Below are positions 3,033-13,381 of a DNA stretch of 64,000 nt, in pieces. The notes beneath the pieces were generated by a model. It was not told where the DNA came from and did no database searches. It worked only from the letters and a program-made list of their open reading frames with translations. The DNA is from Promethearchaeota archaeon (lineage in GTDB: Archaea; Asgardarchaeota; Thorarchaeia; Thorarchaeales; Thorarchaeaceae). The position numbers and the translations under genes are program-made. Position 1 is the first letter of the stretch. The number at the start of each line of letters is the position of its first letter. The stretch covers positions 1-64,000 of the forward strand of contig WJMJ01000034.1 of NCBI GenBank assembly GCA_014728035.1. Direction: 5' to 3'.

Positions 3033-3062
3033 ACACAGTACAATATTGTGTTGTGTATAAAT
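3033..3062 (+). promoter_or_regulatory. Imperfect 24-bp palindrome abutting a TATA-like box
   Basis: ACACAGTACAAT|ATTGTGTTGTGT (10/12 arm match, perfect ACAATATTGT core), followed directly by TATAAAT, ~65 bp upstream of the 3125 CDS. Confidence 0.35.
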
Positions 3063-7828: not shown

Positions 7829-8154
7829 ATCGATATGAATTGATGAGTCATCTAAGTAGTTTTGGATAAATAATCATAATTCCAAAATTCATGTTTAATA
7901 TCATAGAGATTATTACTCAAAAGAAGTTTTCTAAAAGCCTTAATTGTGAATATATGAGTTTATAGCAGTTAATTAGGCTCTTAGTGGTCACTTAATGCCT
8001 ATTAGTAGTGTAGAAAAAATGTAGTGATAATATCTATCCTTTTTCCCGGTTATGTACTTAATGAGTTCAACATATCGTGACGCATGGTGTTGGGCTTCCG
8101 GAGTGAATATCCCTTAGCATTTCGGCACATAAGAATTCTAGTAGGGGTAAAGAG

Positions 8155-8550
8155 ATGACAGAAGATACTGCAAATGAACCATTAATTAATACAGCTCATC
8201 CAAATATACGAGATGTTGAAGATATTGATCAATACTGGAGCTGGTTAGAGGATAGTCAGATTCAAGAAATTGACTCGGAAGAGATTCGTATCCTACAATG
8301 CCTGATGAAAGAATACATTGAAGATAGCAAGAAACTCCCTTTGGAACAAGCGGGATGGAGAAACAAGTATAACATATCCAAGAAAGCAAGAGTATCCCAA
8401 AAGAAAATCTATTGCGAAACAGGCCCAATCGAATCATTGGTGGATTTAGGTTTGATTGAAATTCGTGATTCACCAATTTCTTGGGGTGGTCAGAAATATA
8501 ATTACCGAATCAAAATCACAAAGCAGCTGATACATTATCTTGAGTTGTAG
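8155..8550 (+). CDS. Small soluble winged-helix-like protein (GWRNKY family)
   Basis: 131 aa with AGGGG RBS. Helix-turn-helix followed by L..LGLIE and a beta-wing. Homologous to the C-termini of 8622..9227 and 11197..13347. Confidence 0.7.
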   Translation: MTEDTANEPLINTAHPNIRDVEDIDQYWSWLEDSQIQEIDSEEIRILQCLMKEYIEDSKKLPLEQAGWRNKYNISKKARVSQKKIYCETGPIESLVDLGLIEIRDSPISWGGQKYNYRIKITKQLIHYLEL

Positions 8551-8621
8551 GGGAGTTATCATGGTCTTCATTCCTATCAGCAAAACTGCTATTAGGTCGA
8601 AATTGCGATATCAGACTTGGT

Positions 8622-9227
8622 ATGGAGCAAACTCGTCAATATGGTTATTTAACCAATCACATGGAGAATCTACCAAATCCAGAAGTATCAGGAAGTGTTA
8701 TACTAGCAGTTGCGATGCCAGTTATCATATTCTCGATTCTTTCACTTGGTTTCTCTATTGTAATGCTGATTTATGCAGTTCTAACAATACGAAGTCTCTC
8801 AGGTAAAAGCTCTAGAGAGGAATCGAAAGTGAGTCATGAGAAAGTCCTGATTCCAGAGTCTATAGCAAAAGAAATCACTTCAAAGAATATTATGAGTTTT
8901 CTAGAATCTCTACTCACCGAAGACGAGGTAAGAATAATCATTGCATTAGCAAAAGCAATTGTTACAGATAGAAAAAAAGAGGTTAATGATGATCAAATTG
9001 GACTAAGAAATAAGTATCAGATCAGTACAGAGTCGAATGTAGAACAGAGAGTAATTTACAGTAAAGCTGGACCAATAGACCGACTTGTCGAGGTTGGCAT
9101 CATTATGAAAATTGGTGCAGAAAAGCAAACTGGTGGACAAAAATATCTCTATGTCTTGAGTAAAGATAATTCTATCACAGCTCCTCTGATTGAAATATTT
9201 GATAGCAGAGAGGAAGTTCAAGAATAA
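8622..9227 (+). CDS. Single-TM membrane-tethered winged-helix-like protein (GLRNKY)
   Basis: Hydrophobic segment at aa ~26-56, then the same domain as 8155 (GLRNKYQI...IYSKAGPIDRLVEVGII...GGQKYLY). Start could also be ATG 8661. Confidence 0.7.
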   Translation: MEQTRQYGYLTNHMENLPNPEVSGSVILAVAMPVIIFSILSLGFSIVMLIYAVLTIRSLSGKSSREESKVSHEKVLIPESIAKEITSKNIMSFLESLLTEDEVRIIIALAKAIVTDRKKEVNDDQIGLRNKYQISTESNVEQRVIYSKAGPIDRLVEVGIIMKIGAEKQTGGQKYLYVLSKDNSITAPLIEIFDSREEVQE

Positions 9228-9267
9228 AAAACAGATTGTTTGCGTTTAGATAAAACGAGGAAATAAA

Positions 9268-11184
9268 ATGCAAAATTCACGTTCGTTTTTTTTGGTCACC
9301 TTCTCTATTATAGTCGTGTCTATTTCTTTCATATCTCCAATACCACTAACTCAGCAAAATACATCGATTTCAGCTGAATACACTTATTCAAATTCAGAAG
9401 CTATTTGCATTAGAAATACAACAGAACTTGAAAACATGGGATTGCCAGGGCGAGGAACAGAAAGCAATCCATTTCTCATAGAGAATTTACATATCCAAGT
9501 ATCAAATTCCACCGCTCTAAACATATCGCAAATTGATGGATATTACATCGCTGTCAAGAATTGTCTTTTCGAGTCCTTAATGGGCTCTCAGTATGTAATC
9601 AGTCTCAGAAAAGTTAGCAATCTGATAATTGATAATTGCACATTATCTTGCAATGAAGCTCCTGCAATGAATGTAACAGAATGTAATAACTTGAAGATAT
9701 TAGACAGCAAGATAGATGGCGCAGGAATGATGTTTTGGTTCAGTGATAATCTTGAGCTAATCAATAACGAAATTGGTGATGTGATATCTTCAGAGACCAA
9801 TTATGCATCGATATCCCCATTAGCCCTAGTGTTTTCGGTACACATGGAAAATTGTACATTCGTAATATTCACTGAAAACTGGATATACAATACTCCTACC
9901 CATGGCATGTTTGTTCGGTATAGTAATAATTTAACAGCTGCCAACAATAGAATAGACTCTATAGCATCTTGGTCATTCTATTTTTCACGCAGCTATAATG
10001 TGAAGATATATGATAATATGATTAGAGATACTGGTTGGGTACCAATTCGAATTTATAAATCGTATAACTGTGACGTAATGAACAATATTATCCTTAGAAG
10101 TGGTGAATGGGGAATTTACATTGTAGAATCTCTTCAGATAAGAATCACCAAAAACACTATCAAATACACAGAATTCATGGGTATTGCATTAGAAAGCTCG
10201 ACCTCATGCACAATGATCCATAACAGTATTTTTTATGCTGAGTCTAATGGTATAAGAATTCTAGATTCTAATAAAATGTCTATCAAAAATAATTCAATTA
10301 TTGATTCTGCTTCTGACGGAATAAGAATCCATAATACCAGTGAAGTTGAAATTGACGAATGTTATATTGCTAATTCATTATATAACGGAATAGTTTTTGA
10401 AAGGTCAATCTACGTTTTCATATCAGATAGTTACATAACAGGATGCAGAGGTTCTGGAGTCTATTTCTATCGAACAAATTCGAGTGAGATTAATATGACC
10501 TGGAGCGTGGATAATTTTCTTTCAGGCATTCAATCAACGCAAAGCAATAACCTATCAATAACAAATAACTCTCTTTGCAGAAATGACGAATATGGGATAT
10601 CACTATCTGAAACAGAGTCATCGAAAATATATCACAACAGAATTGGACTCAATACTCAAAGTGCATTCGATGATTTAGGAAATAACCAATGGAATTATAC
10701 ACATTTTGGAAATAGATGGCATGATTTTCTAGGTCCTAGCGATTCATCAATTTCTATTGCGGGATCCTCAGAATCTTCAGATTTCCATGCATACCGATGG
10801 TTTAGAACTATTCCCAATATCACCTCAATATCTCCAAGCCAGATAATTAAACAAAACTTGGAAACCATTGTTTTTGAATTAGAAGCACCAAATTTAGAAT
10901 GGTACAGGATATATGTGAATAATGAAAAAATCGTTTCACATTGGGGGCCAGCTAACACAATACAGACTACTTTGAATCTAAGTGTCGGGCAGCATAACAT
11001 AACTATCAAGGTTATCAATGTATTTGGAGAAACTAATTCAATGTCACGAATAATAACAATTACTTCTGTTGAAGCTAATATTAGTGAAGAAATCTTAGTT
11101 TCAATTATTTTAATTTCGAGCGGGATTATCCAACTTGTTGCTGGCTCTATTCTGGTTCGTGAAACAAGAAAACTCAAAGAATGA
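9268..11184 (+). CDS. Membrane-anchored beta-helix (NosD-like) surface protein with no cytoplasmic domain
   Basis: GAGG RBS, signal peptide, GLPGRGTESNPFLIE cap, beta-helix rungs, GNRW, Ig-like stalk, C-terminal TM and short basic tail. Confidence 0.85.
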   Translation: MQNSRSFFLVTFSIIVVSISFISPIPLTQQNTSISAEYTYSNSEAICIRNTTELENMGLPGRGTESNPFLIENLHIQVSNSTALNISQIDGYYIAVKNCLFESLMGSQYVISLRKVSNLIIDNCTLSCNEAPAMNVTECNNLKILDSKIDGAGMMFWFSDNLELINNEIGDVISSETNYASISPLALVFSVHMENCTFVIFTENWIYNTPTHGMFVRYSNNLTAANNRIDSIASWSFYFSRSYNVKIYDNMIRDTGWVPIRIYKSYNCDVMNNIILRSGEWGIYIVESLQIRITKNTIKYTEFMGIALESSTSCTMIHNSIFYAESNGIRILDSNKMSIKNNSIIDSASDGIRIHNTSEVEIDECYIANSLYNGIVFERSIYVFISDSYITGCRGSGVYFYRTNSSEINMTWSVDNFLSGIQSTQSNNLSITNNSLCRNDEYGISLSETESSKIYHNRIGLNTQSAFDDLGNNQWNYTHFGNRWHDFLGPSDSSISIAGSSESSDFHAYRWFRTIPNITSISPSQIIKQNLETIVFELEAPNLEWYRIYVNNEKIVSHWGPANTIQTTLNLSVGQHNITIKVINVFGETNSMSRIITITSVEANISEEILVSIILISSGIIQLVAGSILVRETRKLKE

Positions 11185-11196
11185 CATTGTTGATAT

Positions 11197-13347
11197 TCAA
11201 TTCAAATCAATCATTATTTGAAAAAGCAGATATTCGGTATTTATTCTGTATTGAAATCGCTGTCTACCCCAATATAACCTAGTAGATTCCCTTTTTGAAA
11301 TTAGTGCGTTTTTCAATAGTAAATACACTACACCATTATGGCTATAGACCTGTCGTTTGGATACCTTAGCTCCCAAATGCATCTGATATTTGTTTCTCCA
11401 TCCGTATTTTTGTGGCATACGTGAATAGTCACTAATTGAATCTTGAAGGAATTCACGGAACAGGTAAGAAACAACGGAATACATCTCTCGATTTAGGATG
11501 CGTTTAAGAAAATTCCAACATTTGTCAATTGTAAGTTTTGAAATTATATGCTGTAAATTGATAATCAAGTATTGAGAGTGTGTTCGTACCAAAGTAGGTT
11601 TCCTAGTATATTCACGGAAAAGTAAAGCTGTTCCTATTGGAAATATAATAAGAATAAAAAGAATTGAAATTGGGTTTGAAATGGATAGAATTGACGTCGA
11701 AGGTTGTAATTCATAGTCAAACGTACTTGTGCTATTGATATTACCATCTTGGTCTTGGAGAATTATTTCAAATTGGATAACATTAAAACGCCCAATCATA
11801 ATATCTGATGACCAGCTACTCTCTCTTCGTGTCATCTGAATTATATTCCAGACATTGGACGCATCAACTGAATAATTCAAACTCATTATTTCAATTGAAG
11901 AATTAGTAGAGGCAGAAAAAGTGACATAAGACATATCCTGATAAATTTCCAAATCCAAAGATACCTGAGGGGGAATATAATTCATAAAGAACCTCTTACT
12001 AATTACAGTCTCAGCACTCATGATGGGGTATAAGTCTTGTAGCCCAAATGCAATTGTGTACGGTTCGTCTGCAATGAGATCTCCATCTTCATCTTCGCCC
12101 TGATGCGAGGAATAATAATTTCCGTATTTCGCATTACAGAATTTGATACTATTAAGCTCGGTCCCTTCGATAGGATCTGAGAAAGGTTGTATGAAAGCGT
12201 TCATGAAAACTCTTCCAGAACTTTCCCAAAAACCCAAAGCTGCATTCACAGATTGATTTATGACACTCCCAAAAATACAGATATCCTCTACTCTATTACA
12301 AGATATACCCCAACCCTGGGCCAATGTAATATCATTCAGAACTACGTCAATTGCTTCAGATTCATATATCTCAATTCCATTTCCAGATGAACAATATATA
12401 GAATTAGATGAAATGCTAATATCTTCAGCATATTCAATCGATATAGAATGACAAGTATCTAAGGTATTGTTTTCGATATAGCTATTTTTACACTCAAAGA
12501 AACGGATTCCCGAGATATTGGAGTGGATAATATGATTATTAACTAGAGTTGCATTTCTTGTTTTACGAACGTGGATTGCATTTTCATTAACCGAGTCAAG
12601 GATATTATGCGATATTTTGATATTGTTTGTGTTATCAACAAACACGCCATCGAAGTGTGATCCGATTACTGAATTATTTTCGATAGAAATTTCTGAACTC
12701 CGAATAACCTCAATCGCAATACCATTCGAGTTGAGTAGATTTCCAGAAAGGATAACGTCTGACCCATAGCTTAATTCAATCCCAATTTCTGAATCTGAAA
12801 TATTGTTATTATTTAGTTGTATGTTTTCAGTGTCATGGATTTTTATTGCTACTTGAGGATGATTGAAGAAAGTGCAATTTTGAATCACCGAGTCAACACC
12901 ACTAATATGAATTAGTTCCTTTGTTGTGTATCCTGCATAGAACTCACATCTGGTCAATTCGATACTAGAACCCTCCTCAGATACGAGATACCACTCGAAA
13001 TCGCCTACGGACTTGACACATGTATCTTCTAAATTTAGGAAACCACCGTTAGTTATTATGATGTTACAATAATCTTGAGTAGCAATAATTGTGCAATTAT
13101 CAAAGAGTATCCGTTCATCTTCGGAAATATACATTGATGTTTCCAGTTCGATAATTTCATCTCGGTAAATACTTGTAAAATCAGAATTTATCCGTCCAAT
13201 CATGGTAGCTTCTAAATTTGTGGAATATGGCATGGACTCTTGAAACATACTAGTAGAATTGGTAACTATTTGAATGAAAAATAGAGATATCGCTAAGATA
13301 GAAAAAGCATGTCTGAAGTTAATCACCACCCTTCTCAACTGCCACAC
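11197..13347 (-). CDS. Receptor-like protein: extracellular beta-helix, TM helix, cytoplasmic winged-helix-like domain
   Basis: Signal peptide, beta-helix rungs, GNYY...DGDLIADEPY end motif, TM (ISILFILIIFPIGTALLF), then ~135 aa with GWRNKYQM...VYSHNG...WGRQRFQYRI. The true start may be a GTG near 13326-13329. Confidence 0.8.
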   Translation of the reverse strand: MWQLRRVVINFRHAFSILAISLFFIQIVTNSTSMFQESMPYSTNLEATMIGRINSDFTSIYRDEIIELETSMYISEDERILFDNCTIIATQDYCNIIITNGGFLNLEDTCVKSVGDFEWYLVSEEGSSIELTRCEFYAGYTTKELIHISGVDSVIQNCTFFNHPQVAIKIHDTENIQLNNNNISDSEIGIELSYGSDVILSGNLLNSNGIAIEVIRSSEISIENNSVIGSHFDGVFVDNTNNIKISHNILDSVNENAIHVRKTRNATLVNNHIIHSNISGIRFFECKNSYIENNTLDTCHSISIEYAEDISISSNSIYCSSGNGIEIYESEAIDVVLNDITLAQGWGISCNRVEDICIFGSVINQSVNAALGFWESSGRVFMNAFIQPFSDPIEGTELNSIKFCNAKYGNYYSSHQGEDEDGDLIADEPYTIAFGLQDLYPIMSAETVISKRFFMNYIPPQVSLDLEIYQDMSYVTFSASTNSSIEIMSLNYSVDASNVWNIIQMTRRESSWSSDIMIGRFNVIQFEIILQDQDGNINSTSTFDYELQPSTSILSISNPISILFILIIFPIGTALLFREYTRKPTLVRTHSQYLIINLQHIISKLTIDKCWNFLKRILNREMYSVVSYLFREFLQDSISDYSRMPQKYGWRNKYQMHLGAKVSKRQVYSHNGVVYLLLKNALISKRESTRLYWGRQRFQYRINTEYLLFQIMIDLN

Positions 13348-13381
13348 CTATCGATATTATCCACACCTATCGATATTATCC
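13342..13381. repeat. Perfect 19-bp tandem direct repeat (2 copies)
   Basis: CCACACCTATCGATATTAT at 13342-13360 and 13361-13379, plus CC. Each copy contains the palindrome TATCGATA. Confidence 0.9.

Follow-up and report, generated by a model that had tools for sequence, protein, structure and literature searches.

A family of predicted winged-helix proteins in free, membrane-anchored and surface-protein-fused forms beside beta-helix genes of Thorarchaeota-type Asgard archaea

Genes of the cluster and their shared domain

The window analysed here, the whole stretch of 64,000 nucleotides (nt) from contig WJMJ01000034.1 of a Promethearchaeota archaeon, carries a gene cluster in which a predicted winged-helix domain occurs in three forms, free, anchored in the membrane and fused to a surface protein, among genes for beta-helix surface proteins (Table 1). 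These three layouts had been claimed in a preliminary description, made from the letters of the window, for the open reading frames (ORFs) at 8155-8550, 8622-9227 and 11197-13347, and they are present as claimed. The soluble product (8155-8550) has no hydrophobic span, and its core has an isoelectric point (pI) of 9.8. The anchored protein (8622-9227) has a single uncharged span at residues 22-56 (8685-8789), with the winged helix at residues 85-197 (8874-9212). In the fusion protein (11197-13347), a hydrophobic N-terminus and an ectodomain that matches Pfam Beta_helix (E 3e-21) and NosD (E 1e-20) precede the transmembrane helix (residues 550-581, 11605-11700) and a tail of 135 residues with the winged helix at residues 605-716 (11200-11535). 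Two further beta-helix proteins had been described as membrane-anchored and devoid of a winged-helix tail (3125, 9268), which is borne out by Pfam and by their hydrophobic spans. The larger matches Beta_helix with E 4e-71 and NosD with E 2.5e-67 and is hydrophobic at residues 1-24 and 1513-1548, and in both of them only a short basic tail follows the C-terminal transmembrane helix. The gene for the smaller starts 40 nt after that for the anchored winged-helix protein, on the same strand.

Table 1. Features of the cluster and related elements. Coordinates are positions in the whole window unless a contig is named; + and - give the strand; aa, amino acids.
Feature	Position	Strand	Description
Surface protein, 1567 aa	3125..7828	+	Signal peptide, many NosD/Beta_helix repeats, PKD-like stalk, C-terminal transmembrane helix, short tail; no winged helix
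Degenerate promoter-region element	8011..8047	+	Purine box, 12-nt insertion, then CTATCCTTTTTCC; aligned to the conserved palindrome
Soluble member, 131 aa	8155..8550	+	Acidic N-terminus; predicted winged helix at residues 22-131; soluble clade in the tree
Membrane-anchored member, 201 aa	8622..9227	+	21-residue outside stub, then transmembrane span, linker, predicted winged helix; anchored clade in the tree
Surface protein, 638 aa	9268..11184	+	Signal peptide, beta-helix, C-terminal transmembrane helix with Gln (IIQL), tail RETRKLKE; Pfam Beta_helix E 4e-42
Fusion protein, 716 aa	11197..13347	-	Signal peptide, beta-helix (about 124-417), transmembrane helix, two juxtamembrane helices, predicted winged helix; GTG start
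Tandem 19-nt direct repeat, two copies	13344..13381	-	GGATAATATCGATAGGTGT; abuts/overlaps the GTG start of the fusion gene
Fourth member, 237-aa ORF	Contig C111, L004:1432-2145 (minus strand)		N-terminal anchor/transmembrane span; true start probably internal

The domain that had been claimed to be shared over about 90 residues can in fact be aligned over about 110, with 17 invariant columns and identities of 40% and 31% to the soluble copy. The DNA coding for GWRNKY is, as had been stated, identical at 17 of 18 positions between 8353-8370 (+) and 11403-11386 (-). A profile of the three copies recovers each of them from the whole genome at E 1e-48 to 1e-51, and it also finds a fourth, which lies on contig C111 (E 1.5e-17). 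The similarity is not due to chance, since the family recurs in related genomes with E-values down to 1e-44. It is marked by signatures of its own, G-W-R-N-K and W-G-x-Q-K-x-x-Y-R. The core, which runs from G-W-R-N-K to the wing, has a basic pI of 9-11 in nearly all members, and polar or basic residues are conserved where helix 2 starts (RNK), in helix 3 (SQK) and in the wing (QK..YR).

In an AlphaFold2 model of the soluble copy's domain (mean predicted local distance difference test score, pLDDT, 86), a long helix comes first, followed by three short ones, a wing of two strands and a helix at the C-terminus. The tail of 11197-13347, modelled separately, consists of the transmembrane helix, two juxtamembrane helices and, again, the winged helix; pLDDT in its core is 81-97. 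The arrangement that defines a winged helix-turn-helix, a three-helix core followed by a beta-hairpin wing, is thus found in two independent models. With the soluble-copy model, Foldseek returned MarR, CzrA/ArsR, PadR and CodY as leading matches (probability 1.0, template modelling score about 0.6), and an exhaustive VIA-align search gave Z-scores of 9-10 to the winged helix of Rio2 at the top and to MarR, ArsR/SmtB, PagR, TubR and ORC. The tail model scored Z 9.2-9.5 to ArsR, TrmBL2 and the Lrs14-like ST1889, and Z 8.8 to AbfR2. Superpositions on many winged helices gave root-mean-square deviations of about 2-3.5 Å over about 80 residues. Modelling and both structure searches therefore agree with the winged-helix fold that the preliminary description had predicted.

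At the sequence level, sub-threshold matches to archaeal regulators recur: TrmB is found in 6 of 33 members (best E 0.002), and Sta1 and Lrs14 are found as well, which hints at a relation to archaeal DNA-binding winged helices. On the soluble copy TrmB (PF01978) reaches 13.5-14.1 bits against a cut-off of 25.6 bits. The NCBIfam models Sta1 and Lrs14 reach 18.5 and 17.3 bits against cut-offs of 80 and 90. Membership in the TrmB, MarR or Lrs14/Sta1 families was rejected on these grounds, as the curated cut-offs are not reached. A profile search of the sequences in the Protein Data Bank (PDB) gave nothing significant, the best matches being RovC (E 0.21), uS4 (E 0.23) and ST1889 (E 0.28), which were treated as chance or generic. 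The match of profile A3 to the N-terminal domain of uS4 (PDB chain 9axt_AM) comprises two similar stretches, G-L-R-N-K-H-E-I and I-I-R-R-L-V-R-L-G-I-L, with different spacing; this resemblance is probably due to chance. A feature search of the ESM Atlas found low-score unnamed clusters only, and its structure rows comprised PadR, MarR, RepA_N and EarA winged helices.

Family, topology and conserved neighbourhood

A search of 1.84 billion representative proteins with a profile built from five copies gave 46 matches at E <= 0.001, 34 of them at E <= 1e-10. Matches were found in 25 of 400 genomes of the phylum; 18 of the 25 belong to the window's taxonomic family, which has 85 other genomes in the set. 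The sole named homologue comes from a Candidatus Thorarchaeota metagenome-assembled genome (MAG). The family is thus almost restricted to one taxonomic family of Thorarchaeota-type Asgard archaea. Its members fall into two length classes, one of about 105-147 residues without a transmembrane helix and one of about 175-231 residues with a transmembrane helix at the N-terminus, and more than half of them are membrane-anchored. In a maximum-likelihood tree, soluble and anchored members form separate clades (94/88 support). By this tree the family consists of two old branches, a soluble one, to which 8155-8550 belongs, and an N-terminally anchored one, which includes 8622-9227 and a second type on contig C111. 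The copy on C111 is flanked by a PRTase-like gene and a gene for a DeoC-type aldolase, in an order that is the same in the sister genome (L031). The PRTase-like neighbour has weak matches to PADLOC PRTase_III-A (E 4e-6) and Pfam PRTase-CE, and one family member has a faint match to Pfam wHTH-PRTase_assc (E 0.086).

Distant relatives (E 1e-8 to 1e-15) are found in other Asgard families, at the C-termini of large TPR/MalT-like proteins and of a six-transmembrane DUF835 protein. These relatives (L025:1-1797, L027:1-1815, P0047 and P0048) share the signature G-W-R-T ... G-E-R-G-R-G-G. The C-terminal placement in TPR/MalT-like proteins suggests that the domain serves as an output domain.

The orientation of the anchored forms can be predicted from their flanking charges. 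In 17 anchored members, lysine and arginine together number 11 in the 15 residues before the transmembrane span and 45 in the 15 residues after it. The N-terminal stubs of the anchored members comprise 0-40 residues and do not have the positive n-region of a signal peptide, and in 11197-13347 the transmembrane helix is directly followed by R-E-Y-T-R-K. By the positive-inside rule, these counts therefore indicate that the winged helix is cytoplasmic in all anchored forms (N-out/C-in), which is the location that the preliminary description had assigned to it.

The searches in other genomes recovered co-localised copies there as well: of the 19 matching genomes in the taxonomic family, 14 have at least two copies no more than 3.5 kb apart. 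In most genera the anchored and soluble genes are convergent. ORF maps of ten loci show large proteins on either side of the soluble/anchored pair, and the remaining neighbours vary. In five genera the flanking proteins are NosD/Beta_helix proteins by Pfam, and each has a signal peptide, a transmembrane helix at the C-terminus and 5-8 residues of tail after it. One genus has two loci with other surface proteins as flanks instead (epimerase-like barrels or carbohydrate-binding, CBM, domains), and an FG-GAP protein lies near the cassette in a locus of another genus. The constant neighbour is a beta-helix protein of 532-544 residues whose gene is usually divergent from the soluble gene. Co-localisation of the copies, both with each other and with beta-helix surface proteins, thus holds in other genera.

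The origin of the fusion protein follows from comparing its two parts with these neighbours. Its ectodomain has a colinear blastp match to the 532-544-residue neighbour (E 8e-31 to 4e-19) and matches the window's other two beta-helix proteins only at 1e-6; by this comparison the outside part of 11197-13347 is an orthologue of the conserved beta-helix neighbour. In the tree, the fusion tail and its orthologue are sister to the soluble copies of the genus (98/95 support), which indicates that the tail is a recent, genus-specific duplicate of the soluble gene. Hence 11197-13347 is a fusion of neighbouring partners, which argues for a functional link between the winged helix and the beta-helix protein. 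Adjacency alone is weak evidence for such a link, because the genome is rich in beta-helix ORFs (118 Beta_helix matches in roughly 35-40 ORFs), and the case rests on orthology and fusion. On this comparative evidence the link between winged-helix and surface protein is real, as the genes are co-localised in other genera and the fusion reinforces it.

Inspection by eye of the transmembrane helices revealed a conserved polar motif, (N/S)-(S/A)-x-I-Q, in that of the conserved beta-helix neighbour (L036:7624-9222, L039:10969-12603, L042:10682-12310, L038:7694-9454 and L037:10161-12014). A similar motif, S-G-I-I-Q, is seen by eye in the transmembrane helix of the 9268-11184 protein (11077-11160) and not in that of the fusion protein. 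The transmembrane helices of the anchored winged-helix proteins appear, also by eye, rich in serine and threonine, with a conserved tyrosine near the inner end. These features may mark a site of helix-helix contact.

Promoter and leader elements

A promoter/leader region of about 150 nt before the soluble gene (7990-8154 in the window) is conserved at 12 loci in six genera (L010:1855-2023, L016:1246-1413, L020:1858-2020 and nine further loci). Upstream of the soluble gene these loci share an imperfect palindrome, AGAAAAAGA-N2-TAT-N-CTTTTT. Each of the five genomes tested has one or two matches to the full palindrome, and the soluble-gene promoter is always among them. Its right half, CTATNCTTTTT, has merely 42 matches in 4.3 Mb, which rules it out as a general promoter motif. 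About 20 nt downstream of the palindrome lies a hairpin, GGTTC-N4-GAACC, which in one genus is replaced by a longer, unrelated hairpin at the same place. The leader also holds a G-rich/C-rich block and a conserved Shine-Dalgarno-like stretch before the start codon. Variants of the hairpin retain their pairing via G-U wobbles on the sense strand, which hints at a structure at the RNA level. A scan of five leader-bearing loci against Rfam gave no match at E up to 1, and RNAalifold found a weak consensus of five pairs (-1.8 kcal/mol) for the 12 leaders. The conserved region could be an operator, a structured 5' untranslated region, or both.

A purine box, AGAAAARGA, occurs at 3.8 per kb in the intergenic regions of the cassette and at 0.21 per kb in the surrounding loci, an enrichment of about 18-fold. 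It also lies upstream of the anchored gene and, within the shared intergenic region, on the side of the beta-helix gene. At the start of the fusion gene, each copy of the tandem repeat contains a palindrome, TATCGATA, and exact copies of the 15-mer core of the repeat are found nowhere else in the assembly. A part of this repeat, GATAATATC, recurs at 8025-8033, inside the insertion that splits the promoter element.

Proposed function, alternatives and known systems

The free, anchored and fused forms probably constitute a new family of membrane-linked gene regulators. The winged-helix domain would bind DNA, and the reading put forward here, with a probability of about 0.5, places the proteins, as a winged-helix family that is itself new, in the known class of transmembrane transcription regulators, with local control over the cassette or the adjacent surface-protein genes. 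The soluble form would act at its own promoter, where the imperfect palindrome lies, and on the beta-helix gene, which is divergent from it in most genera. The anchored forms would tie the availability or activity of the regulator to the membrane or to the surface protein's state, in a mode like that of transmembrane one-component regulators or of co-component pairs such as ToxR/ToxS, and the fusion protein would be a single-chain version. A more elaborate scheme is a split device that leads from the surface to the gene, in which the beta-helix senses the outside and acts, via contacts within the membrane, on the anchored protein, which in turn sets how much of the soluble paralogue gets to the palindrome. 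In this genus, sensor and output would have been welded together, in a layout like that of eukaryotic membrane-tethered transcription factors; this scheme is speculative, and the odds are well against it. A complex prediction for the soluble protein and the cytoplasmic part of 8622-9227, both supplied as alignments, gave a score of 0.04 (mark 0.32), which speaks neither for nor against binding.

Several points weigh against transcription control. A conserved G-I-I segment interrupts the predicted recognition helix, unlike in classic regulators, and no Pfam, NCBIfam or PADLOC model matches the winged-helix domain at cut-off, so that no curated DNA-binding family is matched. The winged-helix fold is also used for protein and RNA binding, and the structure matches include the winged helices of Rio2, which is top in VIA, and of ORC, RPC62 and TFE. 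The anchored copies themselves lack a sensor domain, and both purine box and palindrome are degenerate in this window. Synteny among related genomes is non-independent evidence, and the contamination of the assembly, a MAG, is estimated at 8.5%, on which caveat it bears that the same gene cluster is found in a second genome of the genus. Part of this evidence would suit a protein-protein adaptor under the membrane, a possible though unlikely role in which the winged helix docks, sorts or anchors beta-helix proteins or links them to cytoplasmic machinery and the soluble paralogue is a free subunit. Rio2, ORC, RPC62 and TFE score on par with regulators, an interrupted recognition helix and anchored members without a sensor domain fit an adaptor, and for it a fusion straight onto a surface protein's tail would be natural. 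An adaptor does not, however, account for the strongly basic core, for sequence-level hints that point to DNA-binding families only, or for the near-unique imperfect palindrome at the soluble-gene promoter, and the conserved beta-helix neighbour of other genera offers a tail of just 5-8 residues for docking.

Other explanations start from the arrangement of the genes or from the leader. The preliminary description had proposed that the beta-helix is a receptor for a glycan or ligand, that its winged helix forms heterodimers with the anchored and soluble paralogues or is titrated by them, and that one form is set free by intramembrane proteolysis. The presence of three paralogues, each with its own topology, within one cluster fits this model, as does the cohesion of the soluble and anchored branches across genera, and MarR- and ArsR-type winged helices are usually dimeric. 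The ORF maps of ten loci contain no protease gene among the conserved neighbours, however, and the receptor-fused form, which is limited to this genus, cannot for that reason be the core of the system, leaving the model doubtful. It is improbable that the soluble protein is an RNA-binding autoregulator acting on a conserved, structured leader of about 140 nt in its own mRNA, even though the leader is conserved across genera with its hairpin pairing preserved by G-U wobbles or another hairpin taking its place in one genus, Rio2 is the top VIA match and there is a weak local similarity to the rRNA-binding uS4 (E 0.23). The RNAalifold consensus is weak (-1.8 kcal/mol), Rfam is without a match, the 5' arm of the hairpin is missing in one genome, the uS4 match is below significance with a different spacing, and the anchored and fused forms would be left unexplained. 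That the proteins are lineage-specific paralogues without a functional tie to the beta-helix genes, their adjacency being inherited synteny in a beta-helix-rich genome, could draw on the 118 Beta_helix matches in roughly 35-40 ORFs and on the origin of all cassette-bearing genomes from one taxonomic family. It is highly improbable in view of a cassette that is kept while other neighbours differ between genera, and of the finding that one and the same orthologous beta-helix protein is both the constant neighbour and the one fused to the domain.

The proposed membrane-linked regulators can be compared with several known systems. Membrane-bound transcription regulators are known and widespread in bacteria and archaea, and a Pfam-based census lists 1,384 of them in 404 archaeal species (Demey et al. 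2023, PMC10269533). Such a survey would not list the present family, because its domain matches no Pfam DNA-binding model. Like the transmembrane transcription regulators (TTRs) ToxR, TcpP and CadC, the anchored proteins carry a cytoplasmic domain of the winged-helix type on one transmembrane helix and are encoded beside their likely targets, and 11197-13347 also has an outside domain. In contrast to those regulators, the domain is not of the OmpR/Trans_reg_C type, the order is reversed, with anchor or ectodomain first and the winged helix last, 8622-9227 has no outside sensor, and the cassette includes a soluble paralogue. Of the features that define TTRs, at least one predicted transmembrane region is present in 8622-9227, 11197-13347 and the C111 copy, with 8155-8550 lying outside the class; as to a recognised DNA-binding domain, the fold is like that of MarR/ArsR/TrmB, yet the Pfam/NCBIfam cut-offs for DNA-binding families are not reached. 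Membership in the ToxR/CadC family was rejected, since there is no Trans_reg_C match even at E up to 1 and the domain is C-terminal to the transmembrane helix.

In Sulfolobus acidocaldarius, ArnR and ArnR1 are membrane-bound activators of archaellum and pilus genes; ArnR consists of a helix-turn-helix at its N-terminus, a HAMP-like domain, a sensor domain and, at the C-terminus, two transmembrane helices, and its DNA binding has been demonstrated (PMC6396743). The present proteins resemble these in being archaeal, membrane-bound putative regulators with a paralogue pair and in their association with genes for surface structures. They differ in that the transmembrane helix of the anchored form is N-terminal and in that no HAMP or sensor domain is detected. 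ArnR-type membership was likewise rejected, given the reversed architecture and the lack of a HAMP match, with the ArnR1-like/EarA cluster appearing only as a structural neighbour with a template modelling score of 0.54. In ToxR/ToxS and VtrA/VtrC, a tethered regulator is coupled to a separate outside sensor that is encoded next door (Kinch et al. 2022, PMC9214523). The present cassette is alike in that the gene for a tethered putative regulator adjoins that for a membrane-anchored outside protein that possibly senses, and in evolving fast as a cassette. Whereas those pairs make contact via periplasmic domains and are encoded in overlapping operons, here the adjacency of the genes is conserved and any contact would lie in the membrane, because the outside stub of the anchored protein has at most 40 residues. 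The cassette would work most like TTR, ArnR and co-component systems, yet it belongs to none of those families.

The soluble regulators MarR, ArsR/SmtB, TrmB and Lrs14/Sta1 share with the present family the fold (Z 9-10), a basic core and sub-threshold sequence matches, and also a small soluble form whose gene lies next to its likely target and has an imperfect palindrome in its promoter. The insertion in the recognition helix, the signatures and the anchoring of more than half of the members set the family apart from them. In eukaryotes, Notch, SREBP and ATF6 are membrane-tethered transcription factors. The layout of 11197-13347 is like theirs, with an ectodomain, one transmembrane helix and a cytoplasmic domain of a DNA-binding type, but there is no homology and no nucleus to reach, and the fusion is confined to one genus. 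What had been put forward as a candidate new signalling system is new in part: the domain family, the reversed anchor topology, the soluble-plus-anchored pair and the fusion are new, whereas membrane-bound regulators as such are already widely known, including in archaea (PMC10269533, PMC6396743).

Little is known of how Asgard archaea perceive their environment and regulate a repertoire of surface proteins that is unusually rich, and domain-based censuses of signal transduction would miss this family, because no curated model recognises its domain. The cassette of soluble, anchored and surface protein, together with its natural fusion, offers a compact testable hypothesis, for which the conserved promoter element provides a concrete DNA probe. 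If DNA binding is confirmed, the family would represent a new domain family and a new topology for membrane-bound transcription regulators, and it would tie regulators physically to surface proteins in the archaea that are most closely related to eukaryotes. As the family is narrow and almost confined to one Thorarchaeota taxonomic family, its generality is limited.

Anti-phage defence was also considered and rejected, as PADLOC gave no significant match for any winged-helix or beta-helix protein, and the idea of a defence island was given up although an Eco57I-type methylase gene lies at 1-1848. This ORF, on the minus strand and running past the edge of the window, has methylase domains of the Eco57I/N6_Mtase/MmeI type and a weak HSDR_N match, and it probably encodes a type IIG/IIL restriction-modification enzyme. 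The gene for the 1567-residue surface protein is seemingly absent from the sister genome, and at 3033-3056, about 70-90 nt upstream of its start, lies an imperfect palindrome with 13-nt arms (ACACAGTACAATA / TATTGTGTTGTGT).

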